Below, in pieces: positions 24,019-61,252 of a DNA stretch of 62,571 nucleotides. The position numbers and the translations under genes are program-made. The notes beneath the pieces are model-generated. The model had not been told where the DNA came from. It made no database searches and saw only the letters and a list, made by a program, of their open reading frames with translations. This DNA comes from Desulfuromonadales bacterium (lineage in GTDB: Bacteria > Desulfobacterota > Desulfuromonadia > Desulfuromonadales > SZUA-540): contig JAWSUS010000021.1 in the NCBI GenBank assembly GCA_033549025.1, positions 1 through 62,571 on the forward strand. Direction: 5' to 3'. The first letter of the stretch is position 1, and each line of letters begins with the position of its first letter.

Positions 24019-24143
24019 TCTTTATCACGAGTGGTGGAGGGACAGGCCCGACGAAACCACAGCAACCGGTCCGCAGGTGCGGATGCCAGGTGCTAAATCC
24101 TGCCTGCCGTATGCCATAGCGGATGCGGCCGGAAAGATGAGGA
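24019..24143 (+). ncRNA. SAM-I (S-box) riboswitch
   Basis: TTATCACGAG-TGGTGGAGGGACAGGCCCGACGAAACC-AGCAACC...GGTGCTAAATCC...AAGATGAG; upstream of methionine genes. Confidence 0.93.
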
Positions 24144-41742: not shown

Positions 41743-41792
41743 CGATCCATGTCGCCTGCCGCGAGGGCAGGAAGCAGGGTGCTGACGTTCTC

Positions 41793-41875
41793 TTCGGTAG
41801 CCCGGCTGTCCTCGCCTGGTGAGGAGGACCCGTGGCTTTGCGTCCCCAGATTGCTCTGGGTTTGCCTTTGTCGGA
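41793..41875 (-). ncRNA. c-di-GMP-I (GEMM-I) riboswitch, canonical G20/C92
   Basis: CCGACAAAGGCAAACCCAGAGCAATCTGGGGACGCAAAGCCACGGGTCC...GGACAGCCGGGCTACCGAA. Confidence 0.92.
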
Positions 41876-43421: not shown

Positions 43422-44318
43422 TTACTCCACCACAAGGAACTGCTGGACCCGGTTGTTTTCCCGATCGGCAATGAAGACGTCTCCCTGGTCGCTGATGCTG
43501 ATCCCCTCCGGATAGAAGAGTTGGCTGTCGTTCCAGCCCATCCCGAGTTTGCGCCCGAGAAAAGAGCCATCCATGCCGATGACCGCCAGACCGCTGCCAT
43601 ACTGATCGACCAGATAGACATGCCCCTGGTTGTCGGCCTCAAGGGTCGAGGGGAAATTCATGTGCTCCTTCAGGCTGCCGGTCAGGGGAGCAAACGAGTC
43701 CTCCCCCTTTTTGGCCAGGTAGACCACGGCCGTGACGCTGTCGATCAAAAAGACGTTGCCCTGGCGGTCGACGCTGAGGTCGGAGATGAAGCCGTACTCC
43801 GCCGGAAAGGGGATCTGCCCCTGTGCGGCACCGGATTCGTCCACCCACAACACCCGTTCGGAAAATATATCCAGAATGGCTATCTTGCCGTCGGCGGTGA
43901 TGCGCAGGCTGCGCGGCACCACCTTGCCGGATACCGCCCCCTTGATGTCCAGATTCCCCTTGAGGGCGCCATCGGCGCCAAACCGGACGATGCGGTGATC
44001 CTTGCCGTCAAGCACGAACAATTCCCCGTTGCTGCCGATCTGTACTTTGACCGGATAGATGCGGTCCACGGGCAGGGTGGCGCCGGGGGTGACGACCCCG
44101 TCCTTGAGGGTGAAGCGCAAAAGGCGGCGGTTGTCGCTGTCCGTCACGATAATGGTGTCCTCTTTCAGGGCTACCGAAGAAGGGCCGTTCATCGGTTTGC
44201 CATCGGCATCGCCATAAAGGGTCTGAATGAATTTGAGTTTCACCGTACCGGCTGCCGAAGCGGCCAGGGGAAGCAGAAACAGCATCAGAGTCAGGATGAC
44301 TATCCTCGCTGGTTTCAT
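43422..44318 (-). CDS. NHL-repeat beta-propeller protein
   Basis: Signal peptide; NFPSTL, FYPEGI, ADRENNRVQ. Confidence 0.85.
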   Translation of the reverse strand: MKPARIVILTLMLFLLPLAASAAGTVKLKFIQTLYGDADGKPMNGPSSVALKEDTIIVTDSDNRRLLRFTLKDGVVTPGATLPVDRIYPVKVQIGSNGELFVLDGKDHRIVRFGADGALKGNLDIKGAVSGKVVPRSLRITADGKIAILDIFSERVLWVDESGAAQGQIPFPAEYGFISDLSVDRQGNVFLIDSVTAVVYLAKKGEDSFAPLTGSLKEHMNFPSTLEADNQGHVYLVDQYGSGLAVIGMDGSFLGRKLGMGWNDSQLFYPEGISISDQGDVFIADRENNRVQQFLVVE

Positions 44319-44320
44319 GA

Positions 44321-45595
44321 TTACCTCCGATACTTGGTGTGACACTGAATGCACAGGTCGTTGATGGTTTCGTAGTAGAGGAAGTGCTTGTACTGGGTCC
44401 CGTGCGTGCGGTGGCAGCTCAGACAGTCCAGGGTCAGGTTGCGGTTGCGCGGGTCGACCACTTCGTTGCCGATGGGGTGCGTCGAGTGGGTCTGCCAGTC
44501 GTGGCACTGGCCGCACAGATCGACGGTGTTGGGCTCGTTGAGAATGAAGCGGTTGTTCGAGCTGTGCACGGAATGGCAGGAGCTGCATTCACCGTCGGCG
44601 ATGGGCTGATGCTTGGTCTGGCTGCGCTCCTGGCGGGCGATGGTGTCGGCATGGCAGCTGCCGCACACGTTGAGCATGGGGCCGGCCATCAGGTTGGCTT
44701 CCGACGAAGCGTGGGGCGCATGGCAGTTGATGCAGCCCTTCTTGTCGGCCAGGGGCCAGTGCAGACGGTCCTTGTTGAAGGTGTCGTTGAGCATTTCGTA
44801 GTGACAGCCCTGGCAGAGCTCGTATCCCGGTTTCAGGGTGGCGAAGGGGGTCGCCGAGGAGGGATCTTCGTGGCATTGCTTGCACATCCTCTTCTTCAGG
44901 GGCTCATGCACGTTGTCATAGAGAATGGACGGACTGTTCGATCCGTGGGGGTTGTGGCAGGAGGAACAGTTGGCTGTCTGTACCGGATAGTTGAGGTGCT
45001 GGCTCTTGAAGGTGCCTTTATTGGGGTCATGGCACTTCAGGCAGAGTTCCGGCGCTTTTTCCTTCAGCAGGGCCGAGCCCGTTTGGGAGGCATGGGGGTT
45101 GTGGCAGGTGAGGCAGTCCTTCTCCACGGGGGCGTGCTTCACCTTGTTCTGGGACATGGTCTGACCGAGTTCGGCATGGCACTCGAAGCAGAGGGCGCTG
45201 CCGGCCTGAAGGAGGTTGTTGCGGTTGTCGGCCGAATGGGGGTCATGGCAGAGGGCGCATTGGCCCTCGGCGACGACCTGGTGGATGCTTTTCGAGCCGT
45301 CCGGAATCAGACCGTCGTGACACTTGCTGCAGATTTGGCTCGGCTCCGCCGCCATCAGTTTGCCGTGGTCGGCGGCATGGGGGTTGTGGCAGCCGGTGCA
45401 GTCCCCTTTTTTCAGGGGCGTGTGAATATGGGGTTTCTTCATCTTGTCCTTGAGGGCCTCATGGCAGGTCAGGCAAAGATCGCCCCGGGCTCCCTTGGCC
45501 AGCTTGAGTTGCGCGTCGGTGGCACCGAGCGCGGTTGAAGCCGTCAAGACAAGGACCGCGAAAAGAATCAGGATCAGGTTCGTTTTCAGGTTCAT
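44321..45595 (-). CDS. 16-heme c-type cytochrome
   Basis: Signal peptide; 16 CxxCH counted, in paired CxxCH/CxxCHxPH pattern. Confidence 0.92.
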   Translation of the reverse strand: MNLKTNLILILFAVLVLTASTALGATDAQLKLAKGARGDLCLTCHEALKDKMKKPHIHTPLKKGDCTGCHNPHAADHGKLMAAEPSQICSKCHDGLIPDGSKSIHQVVAEGQCALCHDPHSADNRNNLLQAGSALCFECHAELGQTMSQNKVKHAPVEKDCLTCHNPHASQTGSALLKEKAPELCLKCHDPNKGTFKSQHLNYPVQTANCSSCHNPHGSNSPSILYDNVHEPLKKRMCKQCHEDPSSATPFATLKPGYELCQGCHYEMLNDTFNKDRLHWPLADKKGCINCHAPHASSEANLMAGPMLNVCGSCHADTIARQERSQTKHQPIADGECSSCHSVHSSNNRFILNEPNTVDLCGQCHDWQTHSTHPIGNEVVDPRNRNLTLDCLSCHRTHGTQYKHFLYYETINDLCIQCHTKYRR

Positions 45596-45605
45596 ATCGT
45601 CCCCC

Positions 45606-47585
45606 TTACTGCTCGACAAGGTGGCAGGGTTCACAGGATCGTGCCGCAAAGGGCGCATGCATGACATCCTTGAAGTATTGCGGGTCTTTGGAGGCGTGCG
45701 GATTGTGACAGCTGACGCAGTCCATGACCTCGGTGGCGATGCCCGCATGCGCCTTGCGGAAGGAGTCGACATCCGTCTCATGACAGGCGGCGCACAGGCT
45801 GTGCTGCGGCTCGGTCAGCAGGCGGTTCTGCTCCGACAGGTGCGGTTTGTGGCACTGCAGGCAATCCTGCGCGGCCGGAGAATGGGCCCGCTCGCTGCCC
45901 ATCTTGTCTTTCAGGGTCGTGTGGCAGCTGAGACAAAGATCGGGGCCGGTGGTGAGCAGCAGGCCGGGCAGGGCCGTTTTGTGAGGACTGTGGCACTGGC
46001 TGCACTCCCCGTTGGTGACGGGGGCGTGCTGGCTTTTTGCCGAAGCCAGTTCGTCGGTGAGATCACTGTGGCAGGCCGCGCACACGGTTCTCTGCGCGTC
46101 GGCGAGCATGCCGCCGTAGGGGCTGGCATGGGGGTCATGACAGATGAGGCAATCCCGATCCTTGAAGGGGGAATGCTCCAGCTCCTTGTTCGGGTTGTCC
46201 ATCATCGTCTCATGGCATTTCACGCAGAGATCGGCGCCCTGGGCCCGCAGGAAGCGCGCATCTGAACCGCCGTGGCCGCTGTGACAGAGGGTGCAGCTCC
46301 CCGATTTGACCGGCTGATGGATGACCGTCTGCAGGAACTCGCCTTCCAGCTCGGCGTGGCACTGGTAGCACAGAGCGTCGGCCCGTTGGGTAAGCATGTC
46401 GGGTGCGTTGGAGCCGTGCGGGTTATGACAGGTACTGCACATCTCTTCCGTGGCCGGCTGGTGAGGTTTCGCCAGCTTGGCGATGGCCGTTTTGACGTCC
46501 GCATGGCACTCAAGGCACTGCTGGCCGTCCGGTTGGGCGAGCAGGCCGTCGTGCAGACCGGCATGGGGTGAATGGCAGGAGAGGCACCCCCGGTCCGAAT
46601 CGACCGGCGCATGCGGGCTGGTGAACTTGGCGTTTTTCTCGGCATGGCACTCAAAGCAGAGCTGATTGCCTTGGGCTGTGAGAAGCACGGCATTGTCCGA
46701 GGTGTGCGGTGCGTGACAGGAGAGACATTCGCCCCCCTCGAAGGGTGAATGGAGCACGGTGCCGCCGCCCTTGAGCGCGTCGGGGTCATGGCAGTTCTGG
46801 CACAGTTCGCTGCCCGTCTGGGCCAGGCCGAAGGGCTCTGCCGAGGTGGCGCCGTTGTGGCAGGCCTCACAGCTGGCTTCCGCCACCGGCGAGTGGACGC
46901 TGCCTTTAAGGAGGCCGCCCAAATCGCTTGAATGGGGATCGTGGCAGAGGGTGCAGGACTGCTGTTCCACCGGGTAGTCTCCATGGGCCTGACGAAAGGT
47001 TTTATCCCCGGGGTCATGGCATGAGAGGCAGAGTTTCAGCGGATTCTCCGTCAGCAGGTTCGGTTCGGGGGAACCGTGGGCCATGTGACAGGCGCGGCAG
47101 CCCTGATCCTTGATGACGCCATGCACCTCCTTGCGGGAGAAGGGCGTCTTATCGTGACACTGGAAACAGATGTCGCTGCCGCTGGCATTCATCATGAAGG
47201 GGTTGTCCGAGGCGTGCGGGTTGTGGCAGGTCGTGCATTGCCCCTTGCGCACGGCACTGTGAACACCCTTTTTGTCCAGGCCCAGGTCTTCCTGGCTGTG
47301 GCAGGGGAAGCAGACCTTGTTCCCCGACTCCTTCAGCAGCAGCTTGGGGATGATGCCGTGGGGCAGGTGGCATTCCTCGCATTTCTGGTCCTTGACGATG
47401 GCGTGCACATGTTTTTTGGACAGGTATTCCTTGTCAAAGTCCTTGTGGCAGTCGATACAGCCCTGGCGGCTGAAGGAACGCTTGGCCGCCTCGGCCTCCC
47501 CGGTCGTAAAACCTGCCAAAAGGACGATGACTACCGCGGAAAAGAGAGCCGTCCAAATTCCGTTTTTTCCTGACGAAAAGCTCAT
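45606..47585 (-). CDS. 26-heme c-type cytochrome
   Basis: Signal peptide; 26 CxxCH counted. Confidence 0.92.
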   Translation of the reverse strand: MSFSSGKNGIWTALFSAVVIVLLAGFTTGEAEAAKRSFSRQGCIDCHKDFDKEYLSKKHVHAIVKDQKCEECHLPHGIIPKLLLKESGNKVCFPCHSQEDLGLDKKGVHSAVRKGQCTTCHNPHASDNPFMMNASGSDICFQCHDKTPFSRKEVHGVIKDQGCRACHMAHGSPEPNLLTENPLKLCLSCHDPGDKTFRQAHGDYPVEQQSCTLCHDPHSSDLGGLLKGSVHSPVAEASCEACHNGATSAEPFGLAQTGSELCQNCHDPDALKGGGTVLHSPFEGGECLSCHAPHTSDNAVLLTAQGNQLCFECHAEKNAKFTSPHAPVDSDRGCLSCHSPHAGLHDGLLAQPDGQQCLECHADVKTAIAKLAKPHQPATEEMCSTCHNPHGSNAPDMLTQRADALCYQCHAELEGEFLQTVIHQPVKSGSCTLCHSGHGGSDARFLRAQGADLCVKCHETMMDNPNKELEHSPFKDRDCLICHDPHASPYGGMLADAQRTVCAACHSDLTDELASAKSQHAPVTNGECSQCHSPHKTALPGLLLTTGPDLCLSCHTTLKDKMGSERAHSPAAQDCLQCHKPHLSEQNRLLTEPQHSLCAACHETDVDSFRKAHAGIATEVMDCVSCHNPHASKDPQYFKDVMHAPFAARSCEPCHLVEQ

Positions 47586-47656
47586 GGTCCAACCTCGCTC
47601 AGAAAATAACCTTGTCAATGATTGTCTGCTGTCAAATCTCTTACTCTTAAAATCTC

Positions 47657-49699
47657 TCACGAAGCCTGCCCGCTCAGATAGATGCGGGTGTCGTAGGCTT
47701 CCCTGAGTTTGCCGATCCACATCTCCAGGGTTTCCTCAACCTTGTTCTGGAAAATGATCTGCCTGATCTCCTCCCGGACCTGATCGTAAGGCTTCGGCTC
47801 GGGCGGATAGACCTTTTCAAAATAGAGCACGTAGAAAAATTTACCCGGATCGTCGAAGACAATGGCATCGCCGGTGCGATAGCTTTCGCCTTCCTTCTGC
47901 AGATGGGCCGGCAGGGAGGTCAGGCTCAGGATGCTGTTGCCGAAAGTGAGAAGGTCCTTGTTCTCCACAGGCACCAGGCCGGAAGAGTTGGCGGCCACCC
48001 ACTTGAAATCGCTCCCCCCCTGCAGCTTCTTCAAGGCTTCGCGGGCGTCGTTCTCACGGTAGAAGGGGAGGGACTTGACCCGCAGCATGGTTGGGGTGGA
48101 ATACTTCTGCAGGTTGTCGTCGTAATACTTGCGGACTTCCTCTTCGCTGATGGTCACATCGGGGACGACGGCCTTCTGCACGAAGTTGTCGAACAGGGTC
48201 TTGCGCTCGAACTCCTCGACCTGCAGGCGGTAATCCTGTTCCTTGTCCAACCCGAGGTTTTTGGCGACCAAAGTGCCGGCCCGGCGGAAGAGGATGTCGG
48301 TGAGAATCTGGTCCTTTTTGCCCTCCACTTCTTTGACGTCCAGGGGGATGTCCGTGCCGTGATAGAAAGTGCTGTTCAGCCTACCGGCAAATTCAGCCAC
48401 CGTGAGGATCTCTGGCTCGGCGCCCTTGACGGTGGCGAGCACGCGATTGTCCGTCAGCAAAGGCGCTATCGCCGCGCCGAGTTTGATCTCCGGGTTCTTT
48501 TCCTTGATTTTGGCAAAGTCGATAGCGGCCTTCGCCTCTTTGTTGAATGCGGCTTTTTCATCAACCAGCCTGGAGACATATTTCTCTCCCTGGCTGGCCA
48601 CCTGCCTGTCCCATACCGCTTTGCGGGCGAACTGCAGGGCAGCCGGATCTTCCATGAAGCGTTTGTCGACCAGGCGGAAGATGAGGAAGCCGTCCGCCTT
48701 CGTGTAGATCTTGCTGATGTCCCCTGCCTTCATCTCCTTGGCATCGGTGGCGATCTGGGGAAGCAGATTCTTGAAGGACGTGTATTCCGCGTCGGGCTCT
48801 TTCACGGCCTTGCCCTGGGCGATGGCTTCTTTGATCAGGGCGTCGAAGGATTTCTTCTCTTCCAGAGCCTTGAGGATTGCGACGGCATCCTCCTGTGTGG
48901 AGAAGCGGTAACTTTCAAACTTCCCTTCCAGGGAAATATCCCGGTAGAGCTTGTTCGCCTCTTCCTCGTCGACGGTCAGGCCGGCCAGCTGTTTGTTGAG
49001 TAGAGCGTACAGAAGGGTCTTTTCGGCAAAATCATCGACCTGCTTACGGATCGTGGCGGTCTGGTCCAGGCCGATGTTCCGTGCCTCCAGTGCGACCAGA
49101 CGAACAGCAATCAGGCGGTCCAGCAGGTGCTGCGCGTTTTCGGTAAGGGTGGAATGGTGGTTCTCTTCGGTCATATCACCATACGAAGCCTTCAAATCCC
49201 GTGAAAATTCGGCCATGACGATGGGCTCCTGGTCGATCTCAGCCACGGGGGTTTCCCCGTACCACAGGGAGAAGAGAGGAGCGTTCAGCAGCAGATTCCG
49301 GTCTTTGTCGATGCCCCCTGCCGTCATGCGTTCGACGCGCACATCAGTTTTGCCTTGTGATCGCTCGGCAATCACCTTGTCGAGTTCACGGTTCAAGGTG
49401 TTGGTCAGGGCCTTGGCCGCGCCCTCCGTCGGCAGGGGCATTTCCTCGTGAACGGGCGTAAGAAAGGGCGTCAGCTGGCCCAGCAGGACGGGATGCTCGT
49501 TGACAAAAGCGACGGGTGTGCCGGCGAAGCTGGCTGAAAAAACAGGAATCTTCAGGTTGAGGGTGGCGCTGTCGTCCAGGACCACCTGGTTGGCACGATG
49601 CTCCTCGGCATGCTGGGCATCGCCAAAGGCGTAGGCCGAGGTCAGAGGAGCAAGGCTGATCATCAGTGCGAGAGGGATTAGGCGAAGCATTTTTTTCAT
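47657..49699 (-). CDS. periplasmic SurA/parvulin-like chaperone (PPIase-like)
   Basis: Signal peptide; duplicated ARNIGLDQ/AKNLGLDK and VTISEEEVRKYY units; PYDQVREEI. Confidence 0.8.
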   Translation of the reverse strand: MKKMLRLIPLALMISLAPLTSAYAFGDAQHAEEHRANQVVLDDSATLNLKIPVFSASFAGTPVAFVNEHPVLLGQLTPFLTPVHEEMPLPTEGAAKALTNTLNRELDKVIAERSQGKTDVRVERMTAGGIDKDRNLLLNAPLFSLWYGETPVAEIDQEPIVMAEFSRDLKASYGDMTEENHHSTLTENAQHLLDRLIAVRLVALEARNIGLDQTATIRKQVDDFAEKTLLYALLNKQLAGLTVDEEEANKLYRDISLEGKFESYRFSTQEDAVAILKALEEKKSFDALIKEAIAQGKAVKEPDAEYTSFKNLLPQIATDAKEMKAGDISKIYTKADGFLIFRLVDKRFMEDPAALQFARKAVWDRQVASQGEKYVSRLVDEKAAFNKEAKAAIDFAKIKEKNPEIKLGAAIAPLLTDNRVLATVKGAEPEILTVAEFAGRLNSTFYHGTDIPLDVKEVEGKKDQILTDILFRRAGTLVAKNLGLDKEQDYRLQVEEFERKTLFDNFVQKAVVPDVTISEEEVRKYYDDNLQKYSTPTMLRVKSLPFYRENDAREALKKLQGGSDFKWVAANSSGLVPVENKDLLTFGNSILSLTSLPAHLQKEGESYRTGDAIVFDDPGKFFYVLYFEKVYPPEPKPYDQVREEIRQIIFQNKVEETLEMWIGKLREAYDTRIYLSGQAS

Positions 49700-49772
49700 G
49701 AAGTAACCTCTTGGTCAGTGGTTGACATTAAAGGAATGATTCTAATGAAAGCGAAAAACGTACCAGTTTCTC

Positions 49773-52700
49773 TTAATTCTCCTTGAACAGATGGGTGGTG
49801 ATGCTCCCGGTCAGCCCCTGAGTCAGGCTGTGAGCGGAACGAACCCGGCCTACATCAAAAAAATAAACGCCGTCGTCGCCCCGGGCGGTACTGCGAGACC
49901 ACCAGATGACCTGGCGATTTGCCCCATCAAACACCTGGGCGGAGAAGTCGACCTTGGCATCTCCCAGTTGATCCTGGTAGTCGAAGACCTGACCGGAGAG
50001 AATGAGGTCGGCGCCGAGAGACGAAGTGCTGGCCAGAATGTCGGAAACCGCCAGCGAGGGGCCGGCCTGCATGATCAGGCGGTATTTGAGTAGATGTTCC
50101 CGCACCAGACCCGGCTCGAAGACCCGTACGTTTTCCAGAGAGTGCAGATTCTGCAGAAAATGCAGAGGGAGCACAAAGCCGGCGTTCTTGCGCGCATATT
50201 TGTTGAGAAAGGGCACTACCGCCACCGTATAGCTGGCCTCCGGGTCGAAATCGGGGGCACGGAAGCGCTCAGTCGGCTGGTATTTTCCCTTGCTGGCCGG
50301 CTCTTTGGTCGGTTGGCCGGCCAGGTAGGCGTCAAGCGAATCAAGCAGGCCCTCGACGGCCTCTCCCAGCAGTTGCTCGTGGGAAGTGATGCGACCCAGC
50401 CCCAATAACCCCGGCGCGTCATCGCCGGTGCGGGCGTCGCTGTCTATCCAGGCGATCTCCGGCATGCCGCCGCAGCGCACAAGACGGGTAGACAAGGCCA
50501 GGCGAGGCGGCGCCGCCTCCTGATAGCTTTCCAGGGAGGTGATGAAGACAGCCTGCGCCCCTGTCTCCGCTGCCAGGGCGCGGGAAAGCTCCTCACCAAT
50601 GCCGCCGGTGTAGCGCATGCGGTGCGCCTTCATGAAGTCGGTGAGGTCCTGCTTGGACAGCAGCCGGTAACCCCGCTGGCGCAGTTTTTCCTCGATGAAG
50701 GCGCCGATATCATCGACGGGTGCCTTGACGCCGGTCAGATTTTCCACAGGCAGCACGGCGATGAGGGAACTCTGGTCAATGGCCGGGGTGATGGTCACTT
50801 CAGCAGACCAGGGGCTTTCCTCCCGGTTGCCCTCGCCATCGATGGCGATCACTTTCATCCGGTAGGTTCCCGGTTTGTGCGGGGCCCAGTGCAATTCAGG
50901 CGAAGCGCCTTTCTGAATGACCTGTTCCCGGCCTTCCTTGAACGTTCTGAACTCGTAGGAAACCGTGCCCAGGCCGCCTGAGGCAAGCGCCTTCCAGACA
51001 AGTGGTTCAGCCAAAGCTGGCCGTGAAGCAGGCGCGGCGGAGGTTAGAGACTGCAGGGAAAGAGGAGGGACGACCTCCTTCCAGGGCGACCAGGGACTTT
51101 TTTCCTCGTTGCCCAACTGATCGACAATATCCACCTGAACGCGGTAGAAACCAGGCTCCTTCGGGTCCCAGACCCAGGAAGTAGCCCGGCCGGACTGTAC
51201 TTTTTCTAAGCCGCCGTCGCGTTTTTCCAGCCAGACGCTGGTGGACAACCCACCGACACCGCCGCTGGTTTCCACCGTCCAGGTGACGGGACCGTGCAGT
51301 TCGTATTGGTCCGAGATGTTGTCGGGTTGGGGAATCGAGACGTGCAGGGGTGGTGCGATGTGGAAGGCGGGGGACCAGTCCGTCGCGGTCTCGTTGCCGA
51401 GGGCATCAATGGCTCGCACCCGCAACTGAAACTGGCCGGCCTCTTCGGGCTGCCAGGTCCAACGCGTCTCGGGTCCAGTCTGTACCGTCAGCACATGGCC
51501 CTGCTGATCCTTCAGTTCAAAAACGGTATCGATGGGGGCAACGCCGCCGCTGACTTCGACGGACCAGAGCACCGGGACGGTCTGCGCCGCCTGCGGAGAG
51601 GGCTTGTCAGCTGCCAAGGTAGTCAGGGTGAGGGGCGGTTCCAAACGGACAGACTCGGTCCATTCGCTGACTGCTTCGTTGGCCAGACTGTCCGTCATCC
51701 GCGTTCGCAGACGATAATTCCCCGGTTGCTGCGGCTCCCAGGTCCAGCGCGGTTCAGAGGCAAATGGGGTGACGAGAGAGTTTCCTTCTTCATCCTGCAC
51801 CTCGAAGGCGAACCGCTGCTTACCGACGCCCCCTGTGCCTTCGGTTGTCCAGGGAACGGTCAGGGTTCCAGCCACCTGCGGGAAGGGGACAGACGTCCAG
51901 GGTTTTTGGAGGATCAGCGGCGGCACGATCGCATAGGGATCAGACCACTCGCTGAGCGCTTCGTTGCCATGCGAGTCCTTCACTTTGGCCTGAATCCGAT
52001 ATTCCCCTTTTTCCGCCGGCCACCAGAACCATTCAGGTTCTGTGATTGTTTCGGCCTGTCCGGTGGTTTCCTCGTCGCGGACCAGGGTAAAGGTATAGGT
52101 CTTGGGGCCGACCCCACCGATGGCTTTCACGGACCAGGCGACCAATCGGGTCAGGGCGGCCTGGGGAGCCGGGCGCGACGGCTGTGGTATTTCAATGCGC
52201 AGGGGCGGGGCGATGCCGAAAGGTTCCGACCAGTCACTGACAGATTTATTCCCCTTGGCGTCGGTCACCGTGACCCTCACCTGGTGAGGGCCGGGCCCCT
52301 CCGGCTTCCACAGCCATTCGGGCTGTGGGCTTTCCGGCATGTCGATGACCTTGTCGTCGGGCTGACGCAATGCAAAGGTATAGGTCTTGCCGTCGAAACC
52401 GCCCTTGGCCTGAACCGTCCAGGGAACCTCAACACTACCCAGCATCCGGGGCGGTACGATAACCGTATCCGGGTGGCTCACCTCGAGAGGGGGCACAATG
52501 CGGTAGAAGGTGGTCCATGGGCCAATGCGGCTGTTACCCTGTTCATCGCGAGCGATGGCCCGCACCTGGTAGAGGCCTTCTTCCTGCGGCTGCCAGCGCC
52601 AGGTGGTTTCAGCGCCGCTCTGCATGGTTTGGGGCGCTTCCCCGTTGCGGAGCAGTTCAAAAGTCAGGTCAAGATCGCCGATACCGCCGGTCGCCCGCAC

Positions 52701-53183
52701 CGACCAGGCGATGGGGAAGCTGCGAGCAGCCTGGGGCTGCTCGCGGTCAGGGCGGGGGATTTCGACAACCAGAGGCGGGGCGATGCGAAAGACACGAGAC
52801 CAGTCGCTGGTTGCCTGGTTGCCCAGAGCATCGACGGCCAGGGTGCGAACCCGATAGTCGCCGGCTGTCTCGGGCCGCCAAATCCAGCGGCTGTTCAGGC
52901 CCGTATCCATCCGCTGGACCGTCTTGCCGTCACGGGACAGTTCGAAGGACAAATTGATGGGGGCCTTGCCTCCCTGCGCCGCCGTGCTCCAGGTCACGAC
53001 ACCGGTGCCGACCGCCAGGGGAGAGACTTCCCGCGTTTGCGGGGGCGACAGCCGCAACTCTTCAACGCTCTCCGCCGGGGCGGCGGCAGCGGTCGGCTCC
53101 TGTGCGAAAGCCGTGGACGCCAGCAGAAGCAGGGCGGCCACAGCGGCACGGAGCTTATTGGAAGAGCTGATCGAGCAGATCAT
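49773..53183 (-). CDS. large exported protein: 8 tandem Ig-like repeats plus two CsgG/TolB-N-like domains
   Basis: ~96-aa repeats PPL..W....GG....W.W.P...G.Y..R....D..GN...S.W; IAVLPVEN and VAVVPFLN domains. Confidence 0.8.
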   Translation of the reverse strand: MICSISSSNKLRAAVAALLLLASTAFAQEPTAAAAPAESVEELRLSPPQTREVSPLAVGTGVVTWSTAAQGGKAPINLSFELSRDGKTVQRMDTGLNSRWIWRPETAGDYRVRTLAVDALGNQATSDWSRVFRIAPPLVVEIPRPDREQPQAARSFPIAWSVRATGGIGDLDLTFELLRNGEAPQTMQSGAETTWRWQPQEEGLYQVRAIARDEQGNSRIGPWTTFYRIVPPLEVSHPDTVIVPPRMLGSVEVPWTVQAKGGFDGKTYTFALRQPDDKVIDMPESPQPEWLWKPEGPGPHQVRVTVTDAKGNKSVSDWSEPFGIAPPLRIEIPQPSRPAPQAALTRLVAWSVKAIGGVGPKTYTFTLVRDEETTGQAETITEPEWFWWPAEKGEYRIQAKVKDSHGNEALSEWSDPYAIVPPLILQKPWTSVPFPQVAGTLTVPWTTEGTGGVGKQRFAFEVQDEEGNSLVTPFASEPRWTWEPQQPGNYRLRTRMTDSLANEAVSEWTESVRLEPPLTLTTLAADKPSPQAAQTVPVLWSVEVSGGVAPIDTVFELKDQQGHVLTVQTGPETRWTWQPEEAGQFQLRVRAIDALGNETATDWSPAFHIAPPLHVSIPQPDNISDQYELHGPVTWTVETSGGVGGLSTSVWLEKRDGGLEKVQSGRATSWVWDPKEPGFYRVQVDIVDQLGNEEKSPWSPWKEVVPPLSLQSLTSAAPASRPALAEPLVWKALASGGLGTVSYEFRTFKEGREQVIQKGASPELHWAPHKPGTYRMKVIAIDGEGNREESPWSAEVTITPAIDQSSLIAVLPVENLTGVKAPVDDIGAFIEEKLRQRGYRLLSKQDLTDFMKAHRMRYTGGIGEELSRALAAETGAQAVFITSLESYQEAAPPRLALSTRLVRCGGMPEIAWIDSDARTGDDAPGLLGLGRITSHEQLLGEAVEGLLDSLDAYLAGQPTKEPASKGKYQPTERFRAPDFDPEASYTVAVVPFLNKYARKNAGFVLPLHFLQNLHSLENVRVFEPGLVREHLLKYRLIMQAGPSLAVSDILASTSSLGADLILSGQVFDYQDQLGDAKVDFSAQVFDGANRQVIWWSRSTARGDDGVYFFDVGRVRSAHSLTQGLTGSITTHLFKEN

Positions 53184-53730
53184 TGACGGCCTCTTTGGTC
53201 ACTTCGTTCATGGGATCGCCGCCGCCGCCGAAGAGACGGTCGGAGAGAGTAATGCCCCCCTTGGTCGAAGCCCCCGACCAGACCACTGTGCCTGTTTCGA
53301 TTTCCATCATCTGCAGACTCAGTGAGATGATGTTGGCCTGGGTCTGGCCGGAGCGAACCTGGCCGTATTCCCGCAGTACGCCGGTAATGACGGCATCGAC
53401 GCCCAGTATTTTACCGATGGATTGAATCTTGTCGGATGGTGGGCTGGTCGGCTGGGGAATGCCGGCCCGGTCGATTCCACGCTGCACCTCGCCGGGTGGG
53501 AGTACATACATGGCTTCAGTCGCCAACAGCATGCCCATGTAAGTGTCGCGCACCCTGGCGGCGGCGTCGTCGTCCGTGGTCAGGTTTTCAAAGGGGAGCA
53601 CGGCGACACTCTGCACGGAGCCGAAATTCATGGTGGCGTTCTTGTAGGTCGCCTCTGACGAGGCGCAGGCAGTCAAAGCGAGCGCCAGCAGAAAGAGAGT
53701 GATGGTCCTGGGTAGTGTGGAGAGTTTCAT
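53155..53730 (-). CDS. CsgG/HfaB-like lipoprotein
   Basis: LTAC lipobox; VAVLPFENLT, LGVDAVITG, ETGTVVW. Confidence 0.78.
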   Translation of the reverse strand: MKLSTLPRTITLFLLALALTACASSEATYKNATMNFGSVQSVAVLPFENLTTDDDAAARVRDTYMGMLLATEAMYVLPPGEVQRGIDRAGIPQPTSPPSDKIQSIGKILGVDAVITGVLREYGQVRSGQTQANIISLSLQMMEIETGTVVWSGASTKGGITLSDRLFGGGGDPMNEVTKEAVNDLLDQLFQ

Positions 53731-53803
53731 GGCAATCCTCTTTATTTGTGAAACGTGTCAGGTGGAAGCGGGCCGCCGGGCGGCCGTCCTGGAATACCGA
53801 CAA

Positions 53804-55960
53804 TCAATTGGTGTAGATGCGTAAATTCACCATGACGGATTGGTAATCCGTCATTTCTTCACGAACTTCCTGGCTGCCAATATTGTACAACACCCTCAGG
53901 GTGGCCTCCTCCGTCACGCTCCAGACGAGGCTAGGCGTAAAGGTGCGACGCCAGTCTTCGTCTGTGTCGCCGTCCTCGTAATACGTTAGATTAAGCTGCA
54001 GGGTGCCATCGCGCAAGGGGAGCCAGCCTGCCCCGTACTCCCAATAGGTGTAGATGTCCTCTTCATTGCGCCGCTGCCGTACTTCGCCGTTGAGGCTGAG
54101 CGTATCCGTCGGGCTCCAGGTGGCCCGTACGCGGCCTGTCTCTCCCCGCTCCGTCGGTTCGTGCTCCTGCTGCTCCCAGCGAATGGAATAGTCGGCGATC
54201 AGGTTGAAGCGGGGATGAGGGATGAGGCTGTTTTGCAGGCGCACGAAAAAGGCGGAGGTGTCCTGCCCGGTAACGGAGTCCTGCCAGTTGTAGCCCTGGT
54301 CGAAGGAGATGTCCCAACCCCTGTACATTTCGGCGTTGGTGCGCAGGATGATAGTGTTGCTGACGCTTTTCCCCTCCGGTTCCTCGGTGCGCATGCCACT
54401 GTAGGTCAAACTCTGGTTCAGGGTCGGCAGGTAGCGGCCGGCAAGCTGGGCGCTGTAGTTGGTGGTGGCCGTGTCATGTTTCCACTGCTCCCAGGCATCG
54501 CTGCGCAGCAGGCGGGCCGTACCGGAAAAAATAGGATTGAAACGATGGATAAGGCTGAGACCGTTGCTCAGGCGCGCGCGCGTATCGTCAAAGAGATCGG
54601 TTTCGCGGTACTGGTAGGTTGCGTCGTACAGGATCTGGGTTTTGTCGGTAACCTTCCAGGACAGGCCGGCGTTGAGGTTCTGATAGGTCGAGGTGATTTC
54701 GGTGACATCGGCGGGCGGGGTGACGAATGCCCTTACGTCGCTGACCAGGATATCCGCCGTGATGCCCGAGGACGCCGGCAGGGCAAAGGTCGTCACTTTG
54801 ATAAACTCGGTGCTGACCTGGCTGGCGAGATCGATGCGGTAGAGGCTGTCCAGCGAATCGAGTACCTGAGTAGCTCCTATCTCCATCCAGTTTTCCTGAT
54901 CTTCACTGATGAAAACACGAAAATCGAAAGAGGTGGATGTCAGCCGATCCAAGGTTAGGTCGTCTGTCTGCAGGCTGACCTCGATAACGTCGACCTGGAT
55001 GCTTTCGCCGAAATCAAGGCCCATGCTGATGGGGGTCTGCGGCCCTGCCGGGCTGAGATTGATGGCATCGATGAAAGGTATCTCGCTGGATGGCGTATAA
55101 GGAGTCAAGGCCAGATCGGTATCCGTGGGGTCGGTGTCATTGAGCAGGAAAAAACCTTCACCCCTGGAGGTCGTTGGAATTTGCGATACTCCGCCCTGAA
55201 ATTCAATTGTGGAACGTTCCATGCGGGCGCCGGCACTAACGGTCAGACGGTTGTCATAAAAGTTGCGGGCGTAGCGTACCCGGCCGTTATGGGTCTGTGT
55301 CATGGCTTCGGTACCGGCTAGCTTCTGTTCTTCGTCACTACGCAGATAACTGTAAAGAAATTCCAGGTCCTCCCAGCGGTATTTGCTGCTCAGGCGATAA
55401 AACTCACTTTCATTGTCGCGAGTCAGAGGCTCGTCGTAGCGCAGAGTGCGGGCGTAGTCGAGTTCGAGGGTAGGCAGATCAACGGGGCGCCAGAAAAAGC
55501 GGGCGGTCGTGGTTTCCATGAAGTTTCGTTCGGTGGCGCTTCCTGTTGTTTTTGATCTAGCCTCCCGCTCCTCGTAGCCACCCGACAGGGTGAAGAGGGG
55601 CATCAGCCATTGCACATCGACATAGGGCCGTACGGTGGAACCTTCCGTGCGGGTTTTCAAGAAACCGGTTTCGGTGGATTCCGTTTCGTTGCGCAAATCG
55701 TTTTCTTCGAGCTGGGCGCCGCCATTTAAAAAGAGGGTGGGGCCGAGTTCCTTGGACAGGTCAAGCCGGTAAATTTGACTGAAACGCTGCGATTCCGAGT
55801 CGATGCGTTCCTGTTGACGGCGATCATTCGTATCCGAGCTGGTGCTGGTGTAAGTCCAGTCGCCGAGCAGTCGCAGGCTGTCGGCGTGGCCGGCGGCAGG
55901 CGTCAGGAAGCAGGTCAGCACAGTCAGATGGAGGCAGATGAGGACAGCGGTTCTGGTCAT
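53804..55960 (-). CDS. large outer-membrane beta-barrel protein
   Basis: Signal peptide; alternating aromatic/polar beta-strand pattern; position in the cytochrome cluster. Confidence 0.75.
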   Translation of the reverse strand: MTRTAVLICLHLTVLTCFLTPAAGHADSLRLLGDWTYTSTSSDTNDRRQQERIDSESQRFSQIYRLDLSKELGPTLFLNGGAQLEENDLRNETESTETGFLKTRTEGSTVRPYVDVQWLMPLFTLSGGYEEREARSKTTGSATERNFMETTTARFFWRPVDLPTLELDYARTLRYDEPLTRDNESEFYRLSSKYRWEDLEFLYSYLRSDEEQKLAGTEAMTQTHNGRVRYARNFYDNRLTVSAGARMERSTIEFQGGVSQIPTTSRGEGFFLLNDTDPTDTDLALTPYTPSSEIPFIDAINLSPAGPQTPISMGLDFGESIQVDVIEVSLQTDDLTLDRLTSTSFDFRVFISEDQENWMEIGATQVLDSLDSLYRIDLASQVSTEFIKVTTFALPASSGITADILVSDVRAFVTPPADVTEITSTYQNLNAGLSWKVTDKTQILYDATYQYRETDLFDDTRARLSNGLSLIHRFNPIFSGTARLLRSDAWEQWKHDTATTNYSAQLAGRYLPTLNQSLTYSGMRTEEPEGKSVSNTIILRTNAEMYRGWDISFDQGYNWQDSVTGQDTSAFFVRLQNSLIPHPRFNLIADYSIRWEQQEHEPTERGETGRVRATWSPTDTLSLNGEVRQRRNEEDIYTYWEYGAGWLPLRDGTLQLNLTYYEDGDTDEDWRRTFTPSLVWSVTEEATLRVLYNIGSQEVREEMTDYQSVMVNLRIYTN

Positions 55961-57421: not shown

Positions 57422-58597
57422 TCAGGGTGTTCCCTGCGGATGACACTTTTGGCAGAACGACCCCTGAGTGCTGCCGAATTCGATAGAAAGGTTCCGTCCG
57501 TAATAACTGTTGCTGACATCGGTGGCGGTGGCGCCGCTGTCACCGATAGCCGGATGCGAATTGGCCAGCAGTTCGGCGGTAAAGTCCCAGCGGCCGGCGT
57601 ACATGAAGGCCGAGGCGTGGGCGCGGTGGCAGGTCAGGCACATAACGTTGGCGGTGGCATCGGGCCCCTGGGTACTTGTGGGGTCGAGCAGGGCCGTGCT
57701 GGTGGTTCCCCGTTCAAAGGGAACAAACTGTAGGTAGGCCGTGGCCGCGATGCCGCTGAGATCGCCGGTACGGATGTAGCTGTTGTAGTTGGCGGCGATC
57801 TCAGCTTCTAAGCGCGCATCCAGACCAATGGGGTGTCCAAATGTGCCATTTCCCACTTGATGTGCGTTGGTGAGCATGGCGCCATGGCAATTGCCGCACC
57901 ATTCGCTGATGCCGGCACCGTAATCGACATGAGAAGTGTCCGATTCGCCGAAGGGATGGACGGGGTTCTGTCGGGCTACAGGGGCATCGTATGTAAAGGC
58001 AAAGCCGTTGTTGACATAGTCGGAGCCGCCGAGCAGGCGGTAGTTGCCGGCACGCGTGCCCGCAGCCGGGTCTTCCCCATAGGAGCCGGAAACGGAAATG
58101 GGAGCGCCGGTGCCGTTGAGTCGGCCGCCATGGGGGTCATGGCAGCTGATGCAGGTCAGCGCGGCGGCGGGGTAGGAACCGCCCGGCGCGTTGACTTTGT
58201 TGGGGTCGGCCGTAAGACCGAAATCGCTGGCGACGATATTATGACCGTGACGGGCGGCGGGGCTGGTGCCGCCGGACCAGCTGAAGGTCTTGGTGACCCA
58301 GTAAAAATCTCCCCCGGGGGTGAGAGCCGAGCCGTCAAAGCTGTAGACGGCAGCCGAAGTGGGGCCGCCGGAGCCGGCATGGCAGTTCAGGCAGAGGGAA
58401 CTGGCATCGGAGGCCCGCAGCAGCCAGGCACCGGAACCGGTTGTCAGGGGGTGACCGTCTTCCGAGTGGTGCATGCTGTGGCAGCCGTTGCACGAACCGG
58501 CACCGCCTGAGTGAAAGGCGGCAGCTTCTTTGCCGTAAAGCGTGACGAGAAGCAGTGCGGTTATGGCAGCCAGAGATGTCAGGATAGACTTGTTCAT
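57422..58597 (-). CDS. OmcS/OmcT-family hexaheme cytochrome (second paralog)
   Basis: AFHSGG.GSCNGCHSMH, TPGGDFYW, GHNIVA.DF, APGGSYP, CHRAHASAF; 6 CxxCH. Confidence 0.9.
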   Translation of the reverse strand: MNKSILTSLAAITALLLVTLYGKEAAAFHSGGAGSCNGCHSMHHSEDGHPLTTGSGAWLLRASDASSLCLNCHAGSGGPTSAAVYSFDGSALTPGGDFYWVTKTFSWSGGTSPAARHGHNIVASDFGLTADPNKVNAPGGSYPAAALTCISCHDPHGGRLNGTGAPISVSGSYGEDPAAGTRAGNYRLLGGSDYVNNGFAFTYDAPVARQNPVHPFGESDTSHVDYGAGISEWCGNCHGAMLTNAHQVGNGTFGHPIGLDARLEAEIAANYNSYIRTGDLSGIAATAYLQFVPFERGTTSTALLDPTSTQGPDATANVMCLTCHRAHASAFMYAGRWDFTAELLANSHPAIGDSGATATDVSNSYYGRNLSIEFGSTQGSFCQKCHPQGTP

Positions 58598-58738: not shown

Positions 58739-59893
58739 TTAATCCTGTACGTGGCACTTGTTGCACAGGGAACGCTGATAGTGACCGTAACCGTTGGTGA
58801 AGGGGGTGCCGGCCGGGTCGAATACAGCCACGTCCACTTCGACGCCGTGCTTGTAGTATTCCTTGGCTGCTGCCGTGGGCAGAACGGCGCCCGTACCAGT
58901 CAGAGTAGTCCAGCTTTCAGCGATGAAGGCTTCGGTCATATCCCAGCGCAGAGCGTTGGGGAAGGCCGAGGCATGGGCGCGGTGACAGGAGAGGCACATA
59001 ACTTGGGAGCTGCCGTCGACACCAACGCCGGCGGTTGCCGCGTCAGTCGGATCGGGCAGATCCCAGGAACCGGTGGTCACGCCGCGCTCAAAAGGAACCA
59101 GGGGATCGTAGGCGGTGGCGACGGTCCCGGTGTAGTTACCGGTAGCAACATAGCTGTTGTAGACGGTCGGTACGGTGACGTCGGTCGGATGCATGCCGTT
59201 GGAAGAGCTCTGGCTGTAGAAAGAGCCGTGACAGTTGGCGCACCAGCCGGCCATGCCGCTGCCGTACTGGGTGGATTTGCCGTCATAGCTGTTGGCGCGG
59301 GCGATAGGAGCGTCTTCTGAGAAGCCGACCTTGTTGCTGTCATAGAGGATGCGGTAGTTACCGGCGATGGTGCCTGCTTCGGGAACGGCGCCATAGGAAC
59401 CGGATACGGAGATGGGCGCGGCGCCACCGACGGTGCCACCCTGGGCCTGACCGTGGGGGTCATGGCAGCTAGTGCAGGAAAGATCGGCAGCGAGATAGGA
59501 GCCGCCAGGAGCGGCGCTCAGGTTGGCGTCAACCGCGATGCCGAAGTCGGCGGCGATGGTGTTGTGACCAGCATTGCTGAAATCAAAGGTTATGGGGCTG
59601 TTGCGTACAACATAAATGTATCCATTGTCTTTAACCCAGTGGAAGTCACCACCTTCGTTGCTGTTGCTGCCGTCGGCGCTGCTGACGTGATAGCGGGCGG
59701 CCCCATTGTGGCAGTTGAGGCAGGTGGAGCTGGCGTCAGAGCCTTTCTGCAGGGCCGGGCCGCTAGCGGCGCCGCCGTGCATGGAGTGACAGCCGTCGCA
59801 GTGAGCAACGCCGCCGTCATGGAAGGCCAGGGCCAACCCGCTCATGGCGAATGTAAACAGAATGGCAGAACAGATAACAAAAAACTTCTTCAT
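58739..59893 (-). CDS. omcS: OmcS-family hexaheme nanowire cytochrome
   Basis: AFHDGGVAHCDGCHSMH, GGDFHW, GHN.IAADF, WCANCH, VPFE, CLSCHRAHAS, QRSLCNKCH; 6 CxxCH; CAGGAGG RBS. Confidence 0.9.
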   Translation of the reverse strand: MKKFFVICSAILFTFAMSGLALAFHDGGVAHCDGCHSMHGGAASGPALQKGSDASSTCLNCHNGAARYHVSSADGSNSNEGGDFHWVKDNGYIYVVRNSPITFDFSNAGHNTIAADFGIAVDANLSAAPGGSYLAADLSCTSCHDPHGQAQGGTVGGAAPISVSGSYGAVPEAGTIAGNYRILYDSNKVGFSEDAPIARANSYDGKSTQYGSGMAGWCANCHGSFYSQSSSNGMHPTDVTVPTVYNSYVATGNYTGTVATAYDPLVPFERGVTTGSWDLPDPTDAATAGVGVDGSSQVMCLSCHRAHASAFPNALRWDMTEAFIAESWTTLTGTGAVLPTAAAKEYYKHGVEVDVAVFDPAGTPFTNGYGHYQRSLCNKCHVQD

Positions 59894-59926
59894 TTTTGGA
59901 TCCTCCTGAAAATCTTTTAGATTGGG

Positions 59927-60010
59927 TCCGAACAGCCCAGCCATCCCCTTCCCCTGAAGTGGATCTGTGACTTTGTGTCCCCACCTCGCGATGGGTTTAC
60001 CTTTTTCGGA
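59927..60010 (-). ncRNA. variant GEMM-I (cyclic dinucleotide) riboswitch aptamer upstream of omcS
   Basis: TCCGAAAAAGGTAAACCCATCGCGAGGTGGGGACACAAAGTCACAGATCC...GGATGGCTGGGCTGTTCGGA; P2/P3 with compensatory changes. Confidence 0.8.
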
Positions 60011-60130
60011 GGATTAGTGGATAGCCGCCCCCTGGCGGGTATCCGGGGTGTTGCAGGTGTTATTTTTAGGTTCACCTCCTTTCGTCAAAGGGCTGTGGCA
60101 GAGCCCCGAAATGGTTGGCAGTCCCAGCAG

Positions 60131-61177
60131 TCAGTTCGTGTCAAACTGTAGTTTGTATACACTGACCCCCAGGTTGGCTGCCTGAGACACATACACCGTG
60201 TCGTTTTGATCGTTGATGGCGATATCGTCGGGAACGATGAGGTTTTGCGGTGCGGCCCCGCGATAGCCGAACTCGGTCACAAACTGAAAATCCTTATCGA
60301 AGACCAGCACCACGCAGCGCAGGCGGTCCGTCACGTAAATACGGCCGGCAGCGTCGGTTTCGATGCCTGAGATGACGCCGAACTTGCCCACCGCGCCGCC
60401 GGGAACGCCGAACTGACCCAGAGTGCCGTCTGCCGTGTAGCGAAAGGCGGAGAAGAGGGTGGCGGCGGTGAAGTAGATCTCCCCCTGGTTCCCCACAGCG
60501 AAGCCGTTAATTTCGGCGCTGCTCAAGGCCTTCATGTCGTCCTGCAGCTTGCGTTCCTGTGAGGCGCGCAGGTCGGATTGGCTCAGGTCGTTGTTGATCT
60601 GCCCCTCAAATAGTTGTCGAAGGTCGATGTGATTCTCGTATTTTCCCTCAGCGGAAAGGACGAGCACCTGCATGGCTTCAGCGTCGGCCAGGTAGAAGCT
60701 GCCGTTTTTAAGAACCATGAAGTTGGCTTGAAAGCCGCGGACGGTATCGGGCAGATCGCGAGGAACGATCTCGCCTAAAGGAGCCCCTTTGTAATCCAGA
60801 TGCAGGATGCGGTTGAGGGGATTGCTGTAGAGCACGTAGAGGTCGCCGTCCTGACCAGAGGTGATATCCAGGGCGGAAGAGAGTCCCAGTTCTTCGCCGA
60901 AACCGAATATCTGCATGGCTTCCTGGTTGTAGATCTGGATGGCGGAGTCTTCGCGGTTGAGGGCGTAGACCTCACCCAGTTCAGGGTTGACCGCCACTCG
61001 GGCCCACAGGGAGGCAACTTCGCCGCTGAAGTCGGAAAGTTTGTACATGTAGGTGGCCTTGGCGTCGCAAAGGCCCAGGGAAGGAGTGAGGGAAAGGGCC
61101 ACGGCGAAACAGCCACCAAGGAGGCACTGCAGCAGCGCTGGTGATGTTGTCCTTGTGTGGTTGATTGCTCGCATCAT
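60131..61177 (-). CDS. NHL-repeat beta-propeller protein, first gene of the omcS cluster
   Basis: Signal-like N-terminus; GRIYVTD, FGYRG..NLIVPDDI. Confidence 0.82.
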   Translation of the reverse strand: MMRAINHTRTTSPALLQCLLGGCFAVALSLTPSLGLCDAKATYMYKLSDFSGEVASLWARVAVNPELGEVYALNREDSAIQIYNQEAMQIFGFGEELGLSSALDITSGQDGDLYVLYSNPLNRILHLDYKGAPLGEIVPRDLPDTVRGFQANFMVLKNGSFYLADAEAMQVLVLSAEGKYENHIDLRQLFEGQINNDLSQSDLRASQERKLQDDMKALSSAEINGFAVGNQGEIYFTAATLFSAFRYTADGTLGQFGVPGGAVGKFGVISGIETDAAGRIYVTDRLRCVVLVFDKDFQFVTEFGYRGAAPQNLIVPDDIAINDQNDTVYVSQAANLGVSVYKLQFDTN

Positions 61178-61235
61178 GGTTAGCTCACCCAATGTGTTTC
61201 GAAAACCGGATTGGTGTCGCGTTGGTCCTCTAATG

Positions 61236-61252
61236 AGCATAAAGAATGCCAA
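61236..61252 (-). promoter_or_regulatory. sigma54 promoter of the omcS cluster
   Basis: TTGGCATTCTTTATGCT. Confidence 0.7.

Follow-up and report, generated by a model that had tools for sequence, protein, structure and literature searches.

A c-di-GMP-I aptamer with G20, U92 and an extra junction uridine before an OmcS-like cytochrome gene

In c-di-GMP-I (GEMM-I) riboswitches, the alpha base of the ligand contacts G20 and the beta base pairs with C92, according to extracts of PMC6140456. The leader of an OmcS-like cytochrome gene in a Desulfuromonadales bacterium carries an aptamer that keeps G20, has U at position 92 and holds a further U beside it, which raises the question of what, if anything, such a pocket binds. 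The original prediction offered two answers, an alternative natural route to 3',3'-cGAMP sensing and a ligand-independent locked fold. The window is the whole 62,571-nt stretch of DNA that was analyzed, and coordinates refer to it unless a contig or locus is named; the aptamer and its gene lie on the minus strand.

The aptamer and its gene

The aptamer occupies 59927..60010 (minus strand; Rfam match 59928-60011). The RF01051 c-di-GMP-I covariance model scores it at 51.3 bits (E 4e-7) against a gathering cut-off of 35, which confirms the aptamer as real, and the other five RF01051 matches in the genome all score higher. RF03167 (c-di-GMP-I-GGC), of the same clan, gives 50.9 bits, below its cut-off of 59, whereas several related leaders score at that cut-off. 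The RF03167 model has C at 92, but both Rfam alignments place U, not C, at this position of the aptamer, and G20 is the G at 60001; this part of the prediction holds. The reference aptamer for the comparison, G20/C92, is outside the switch, upstream of an fn3/Ig-domain gene (41792..41875, minus; RF03167, 75.3 bits).

The fold resembles Vibrio cholerae Vc2 (RF01051; PDB 3IRW/3MXH) in its three-way junction, GNRA tetraloop, C44-G83, A47 and G20. G14 is at 60007 and G20, which would contact the alpha base (role from excerpts of PMC6140456), at 60001. P2 (59975..60000, minus) starts with G21 (60000) and has a GU/AC base, AAA and GAC bulges, the tetraloop GCGA at 59989-59986 and C44 at 59977. J2/3 (59973..59974, minus) is formed by A47 (59974) and A48, both intact; A47 stacks between the two ligand bases, as described in a portion of PMC3764141. 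P3 (59934..59972, minus) contains G83 (59941), a variable distal hairpin and U90 (59934). J3/1 (59931..59933, minus) consists of G91 (59933), U92 (59932) and the extra U (59931), which can pair with A15 (60006). The 3' strand of P1, CGGA, follows at 59927..59930 (minus; C at 59930), and the fifth P1 pair usual in the subfamily, C10-G97, is lost. The features that define the class, P2 with a GNRA loop, P3, C44-G83, A47/A48 and G at the alpha position, are all present, and what is absent is C92 with a 2-nt J3/1, a consensus feature that is not invariant. The junction reads G91-U-U-C-G-G-A, one base longer than in homologues (G-U-U versus G-C or A-C). Compared with Vc2, the aptamer has the extra U, a fully paired P1 3' strand without a bulged A95, and coupling to an anti-Shine-Dalgarno (anti-SD) strand. 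Its G20/U92 pocket is like that of the engineered Vc2 C92U mutant (PDB 3MUR, 3UD3 and 3UD4, per an extract of PMC10671752), but is natural.

The regulated gene (58739..59893, minus) encodes a 384-residue hexaheme c-type cytochrome with six CXXCH motifs in its translation and a match to the solved OmcS chain 6ef8_A (E 6e-49). The predicted position before omcS stands insofar as the product is OmcS-like. Aptamer and start codon (59893) are 33 nt apart. A start at the in-frame ATG at 59944, inside P3, was rejected, as the spacer of the congeners is 2 nt shorter and breaks the frame, and homologues match from 59893. Downstream lies a second multiheme cytochrome gene, OmcS-like by sequence resemblance and in a putatively omcT-like position (57422..58597, minus); upstream, an NHL-repeat beta-propeller gene (60131..61252, minus) ends about 115 nt before the anti-SD strand. 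The prediction that no terminator follows the aptamer is borne out for the minus strand within 59800-60300, where no terminator-like site was found, and no sigma-70 promoter was found near the leader on that strand. Contigs from RNA data, covering 4 of 7 runs, bridge the aptamer and the gene start (X2 record 15, 59790-60000, with 3 other letters; X3 record 24, 59808-60029, with 4 other letters), and show no strand, start or level.

The same window contains a SAM-I riboswitch at 24019-24143 (plus strand; 77.7 bits). A downstream cluster (43422-55960, minus) encodes a beta-propeller, a 718-residue protein without a family match, an LpoB-like lipoprotein, an Ig-rich protein, a PPIase, two large multiheme cytochromes and an NHL protein; it resembles an omcS-companion cluster. 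A paralogous OmcS-like gene on another contig of the genome (L018, contig C27 near 35684) shows 93% identity across 130 bp at the 5' end of the coding region, and its leader has no GEMM match.

An omcS-leader subfamily with a probable anti-Shine-Dalgarno platform

Comparison with related leaders separates what is particular to this aptamer from what its family shares. Among 78 loci drawn from the best 80 of 132 stretches encoding relatives of the OmcS-like protein, a GEMM aptamer directly precedes the OmcS-like start in 26, and 2 more have canonical aptamers further off. After other loci were added and 3 distant aptamers set apart, the omcS-type set comprises 37 unique aptamers; 6 of 228 matches could not be parsed. 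Of 36 aligned rows, 32 have U22-A45, the GU/AC base of P2, and P1 is commonly paired (CUCCG/CGGAG), with 5 bp in 30 of the 37. The compensatory changes in P2 and P3 that were first read as a property of this copy are all three present. Because the subfamily shares the GU/AC base and the paired P1, these changes are, judged from the alignments, traits of an omcS-leader subfamily, common to most omcS-type leaders. Pockets vary within the set: G20/C92 in 16, A20/C92 in 15, G20/U92 in 5 (one of which, L165, came from a scan that selects for U92) and C20/C92 in 1. At two loci OmcS-like genes stand in tandem, and each gene of the pair has an A20 aptamer and an anti-SD to itself (L022, 2891-2968 and 4643-4720; L090, 904-981 and 2881-2959).

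The 5' strand of P1 overlaps a putative anti-SD strand, AUCCUCC (60008..60014, minus), extended through 60007-60003 (GAAAA) against 59912-59908. The Shine-Dalgarno (SD) site AGGAGGAU is at 59900..59907 (minus), with GGAGG at 59906-59902. In the unconstrained fold AUCCUCC-GAAAA, which includes the P1 5' strand and J1/2, pairs with the SD region, with an unremarkable overall z-score of -0.32. Both partners are conserved: of 36 omcS-type leaders, 35 have GGAGG within 45 nt downstream of the aptamer and 32 have a CCUCC-type pentamer before G14, a pentamer found in 1 of 44 other GEMMs; these counts include non-independent kin. In a MAFFT alignment of 36 rows, 86.5% of the helix cells are paired, some of the both-side changes being misaligned rows. 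Among 13 loci fetched later, the anti-SD is present in all 7 that are OmcS-linked (1 of which repeats L043) and absent in 5 of the 6 that are not.

Covariation provides a further line of evidence. In the two columns that flank the invariant core, the paired bases change together (A-U, C-G and U-A, with G-U), giving 41 of 64 Watson-Crick cells versus 27.7 by permutation (p 1e-4) in 32 distinct rows, with L023 dropped for lack of GGAGG and L033 unparsed; removal of close kin and paralogues leaves 35 of 54 versus 23.3 (27 rows). For the extension columns toward J1/2, covariation is not above permutation (46 of 128 versus 46.7), and column 8 does not covary either. Cognate duplexes of omcS-type leaders average -14.6 kcal/mol, versus -13.2 with swapped partners, and none of 10000 permutations is as good, whereas a control set has no such effect (-7.9 versus -7.9); the set from the U92 scan also prefers cognate partners, so the duplex test is not specific to anti-SD pairing. 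When P1 is enforced in folding, 27 of 35 leaders gain more than 0.3 in SD accessibility, and for the leader studied here the unpaired fraction of the SD goes from 0.00 to 0.45.

Conservation of the anti-SD in omcS-type leaders, together with covariation of its flanks, argues that the P1 5' strand serves as anti-SD and that the element is a translational ON switch; we regard this as very probable, the direction in vivo being that suggested by folding. Without ligand, AUCCUCC-GAAAA would pair with UUUUC-A-GGAGGAU and hide the SD site, with P2 and P3 remaining folded. Once bound, the ligand would draw the anti-SD strand into P1, free the SD site and turn translation of the OmcS-like cytochrome ON. 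The expectation that any control would be translational is thereby strengthened, and the element has the 5' leader position and expression platform of its class. Known relatives use other outputs: Vc2 reportedly works through RNA stability (in part of bioRxiv 10.1101/617340), and Gs1761 has an antiterminator, as noted in a partial source. The Geobacter sulfurreducens omcS/omcT leader, compared here by its published description, is likewise a GEMM-I element before an OmcS-type gene pair. In the esnD deletion comparison the omcST switch has the smallest mRNA effect (from extracts of PMC6456294), which by analogy would fit a translational switch.

Position 92, the extra uridine and the register of P1

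An aptamer with the lowest RF01051 score of six in its genome might owe U92 and the extra U to strain-specific decay or an assembly error, but this is scarcely credible and is contradicted by conservation in three species. The same junction is present in both of two congeners, and the aptamers of the three (G000, which is the genome of the window, G001 and G002) are identical apart from the distal P3 hairpin, with identical runs of 60+53 nt and 59+27 nt. The tetraloop, C44-G83 and A47 are kept throughout. The third codon positions of the gene are only 76% and 71% identical, so the unchanged core spans species that differ at 24-29% of these positions; the upstream spacers are 88% and 80% identical. 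A fourth congener, with a 78% complete genome, has an OmcS-like gene without an aptamer match (L024).

The two unusual bases differ in how often they occur elsewhere. A pattern scan of metagenomes finds U92 aptamers at at least 118 loci, and G20/U92 makes up 85 of 89 unique parsed aptamers from the U92 scan outside the omcS set. U92 also turns up in 3 of 47 in sets gathered without selecting for it, some low-scoring rows there being mis-parsed, and in 3 of the 6 non-OmcS loci among the 13 fetched later. U92 is found both at these metagenome loci and in unselected sets, and therefore, on sequence grounds, U92 with G20 is a common, ordinary natural variant; it is also not confined to omcS leaders, where G20/U92 accounts for 5 of 37. 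By the same kind of evidence, the extra U is rare. J3/1 is 2 nt long in 88 of the 89 aptamers from the U92 scan and G-U-U in 1 (L234). The extra-U junction pattern matched 7 of 401 genomes of the class, and lies within the junction only in the three congeners. Matches in the other 4 genomes were set aside, since in three loci (L111, L248, L249) the aptamer already ends with a junction of its own upstream of the match, and the fourth (L250) is a poor parse. L234 (minus strand), the one further extra-U case encountered, is an unrelated G20 aptamer with a possible CUUG/CGAG P1.

The metagenome scan also contains a G20/U92 lineage (L129-L131, L136, L139, L168 and kin) with a long CCCCUUCC/GGAAGGG P1, located before one small lipoprotein-like gene family. 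One natural A20/U92 aptamer (L188, match 501-552, repeated in L204) carries the same pocket as the engineered Vc2 that binds c-di-AMP; its kin L168, L169 and L172 are G20/U92, and drift is possible.

The extra U allows several registers of P1, which were compared by nearest-neighbor folding, a model without tertiary or Mg2+ terms. For this leader the anti-SD state is at -40.0 kcal/mol, a 6-bp P1 at -36.0, a 5-bp P1 topped by A15-U at -35.3, a 4-bp P1 with a 3-nt J3/1 at -33.9 and a register in which the next C takes position 92 at -31.5. Most likely, in this model, the extra U forms a new top P1 pair with A15 and leaves U92 facing the ligand. The A15-U pair would restore the 5-bp P1 of the subfamily after loss of C10-G97, a pair found in 29 of 35 omcS-type rows; C-C stands in its place in 4, among them the three congeners. 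This register would give a 5-nt J1/2 (AAAAG), a form that occurs in 13 natural aptamers, a J3/1 of normal 2-nt length (GU, the common U92 form) and a G20/A47/U92 pocket. Against it, an A-U top pair would depart from G14-C93, which tops P1 in 35 of 35 omcS-type rows, a partly circular count given that the parser required G-C, and the 6-bp P1, 0.7 kcal/mol lower, would compete with ligand. Positions 14 and 95 are described as variable in a portion of PMC3764141.

If both A15-U and A16-U form, as they can, the resulting 6-bp P1, the originally proposed locked fold, would fill the pocket and keep the gene ON without ligand; alternatively, an anti-SD helix too strong for a weakened pocket would make the element a fixed attenuator. 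Such a ligand-independent element is improbable. Of the P1 states the 6-bp form is the most stable, and its pairing is avoided in the two omcS leaders with U92 and no extra U (L026 and L165), where position 15 is U, whereas this leader has A15 and A16. The locked fold is not favored, lying 4.0 kcal/mol above the anti-SD state and only 0.7 below the binding-competent 5-bp P1; the predicted ligand-free state is SD-sequestered, and a constitutive ON lock is not predicted. A15 is tolerated with U92 in 82 of 89 aptamers from the U92 scan, and the ligand-specific and tertiary bases are unchanged across the three diverged species, unlike most of the five other GEMM aptamers shared by those genomes, which have small core differences as judged by eye. 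One comparison counts against a working ligand-responsive switch: in the G14-C93 register the gap to the anti-SD state is 5.6-6.7 kcal/mol in U92 leaders versus a median of 4.2, which would be hard for a weakened pocket to pay; the 5-bp register here reduces it to 4.7. Wild-type behavior could instead be recovered by a slip that puts C 59930 opposite G-beta and makes C13-G the closing pair of P1, with c-di-GMP bound as usual. A C does sit two bases from the nominal position, and a natural J1/2 of 7-8 nt occurs in 3 of 37 omcS-type aptamers, but for this slip J3/1 must grow to 4 nt and P1 shrink to 3 bp, the resulting state ranks last in stability, and among 176 unique aptamers no J3/1 longer than 3 nt was parsed with a parser maximum of 4; the slip is very unlikely. 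The element itself is real and conserved, belongs to a known riboswitch class, is probably functional and has a modestly unusual pocket.

Which ligand the G20/U92 pocket would bind

C92U accepts adenine in the beta site. Work by Smith in 2010 is said to describe U92 as a natural variant that binds c-di-GMP at nanomolar KD through a G-U wobble. In an engineered C92U switch the c-di-GMP response in vivo is lowered, not abolished, and partly recovers when c-di-GMP is raised (extracts of bioRxiv 10.1101/617340). In Vc1, mutation of the C92 equivalent did not reduce reporter output, as given in part of PMC4744006. The double mutant G20A/C92U binds c-di-AMP and has a c-di-GMP affinity of ~4.9 uM versus 0.011 nM for wild type (portions of PMC9049102 and PMC7288161). 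GEMM-Ib aptamers use A20, and G20A is bispecific, whereas wild-type Vc2 binds cGAMP at 10 uM, again in excerpts from PMC6140456. Since G20/U92 is common and engineered C92U still responds to c-di-GMP, U92 alone does not imply cGAMP sensing. A G20/A47/U92 pocket would most likely bind c-di-GMP more weakly than wild type, through a G-beta:U wobble, and would also accept 3',3'-cGAMP, with G-alpha on G20 and A-beta on U92, giving a higher-threshold and probably dual-ligand switch. A weak c-di-GMP or dual c-di-GMP/cGAMP response is the main reading, with a probability of about 0.5. The omcST switch of G. sulfurreducens is sensitive to both ligands, according to a section of PMC6456294.

A stronger form of the proposed cGAMP route would have G20 read guanine and U92 pair with the adenine of 3',3'-cGAMP, the mirror of Geobacter A20/C92, in a cGAMP-preferring switch with the same translational ON output. 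The Geobacter GEMM-Ib riboswitches (Gs1761/pgcA and Gm0970) share the fold, the bacterial class, the type of target (extracellular cytochromes) and a Hypr-type GGDEF protein in the genome, but are A20/C92, whereas this leader is G20/U92 and has no terminator. In a midpoint-rooted tree of OmcS proteins (35 rows; L099 and L165 left out as short), the pockets of an 11-member clade that includes this gene (support 100/100) are all A20/C92 (7) or G20/U92 (4), and the nearest rows outside it are mostly G20/C92 (L057, L046, L043, L073), with L033 A20/C92. However, the basal fork is unresolved, and the pattern amounts to two or three events in an unresolved polytomy from which L099 and L165 are missing. 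The genome also encodes a Rec-GGDEF protein with the Hypr serine and a GGDDY/serine protein, and full-length orthologues with the serine occur in 3 of 3 other U92-carrier genomes tested. This link is loose, since among metagenome-assembled genomes the cyclase was not found with one query in 3 of 7 A20/C92 carriers and the serine is present in 2 of 10 G20/C92 carriers, with 1 unresolved; a Hypr cyclase was accordingly set aside as a predictor of pocket type. G20/U92 is moreover widespread in metagenomes before unrelated genes, and the affinity of wild-type Vc2 for cGAMP is only 10 uM. U92 as a sign of cGAMP sensing was overstated, while the Hypr cyclases and the clade pattern keep some support for it; cGAMP preference is possible but unlikely.

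If it holds, nature would have found a second way to sense 3',3'-cGAMP, in which G20/U92 binds the ligand in the inverse orientation to GEMM-Ib; it would have arisen independently of A20/C92 inside a single clade of omcS leaders, with P1 re-registered by the extra U under an A-U top pair, a proposal that we hold only tentatively. The rule that only A20 marks cGAMP sensing would then be incomplete, and many G20/U92 aptamers filed as c-di-GMP sensors would need re-annotation. If U92 merely raises the c-di-GMP threshold, the result is modest. Either way, OmcS-type cytochromes form conductive filaments, and control by c-di-GMP versus cGAMP bears on the choice between biofilm and metal-respiring lifestyles. 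The aptamer class, the omcS link and U92 are already known kinds; it is the extra U, with the predicted shift in P1 register, and the distribution of bases 20 and 92 across the clade that make the element a compact test case. A literature search found no report of a natural G20/U92 cGAMP sensor or selectivity, nor of an omcS anti-SD; natural U92 variants and the omcS platform may have been treated already in Smith 2010 and Kellenberger 2015 or in the supplements to these papers. Within the family of omcS leaders, four pocket types occur naturally on the same scaffold and with the same output: G20/C92, A20/C92, G20/U92 and G20/U92 plus one U.

Elsewhere in the genome, the Hypr serine occurs in 2 of 28 GGDEF matches, so that the host trait of GEMM-Ib (Ser at 348, as defined in partial sources) is present, while the aptamer has G and not A at position 20. 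The two proteins, at C1:318904-319362 (minus) and C18:16144-16455 (plus), resemble GacA (Rec-GGDEF) and GSU1937 (here GGDDY), respectively, and are candidate cGAMP cyclases. An A20/C92 (GEMM-Ib-type) aptamer at C17:24811-24886 lies ~1.1 kb upstream of a GGDEF match, and a C20/C92 aptamer at C32:20778-20867 is conserved in G001 and G002.
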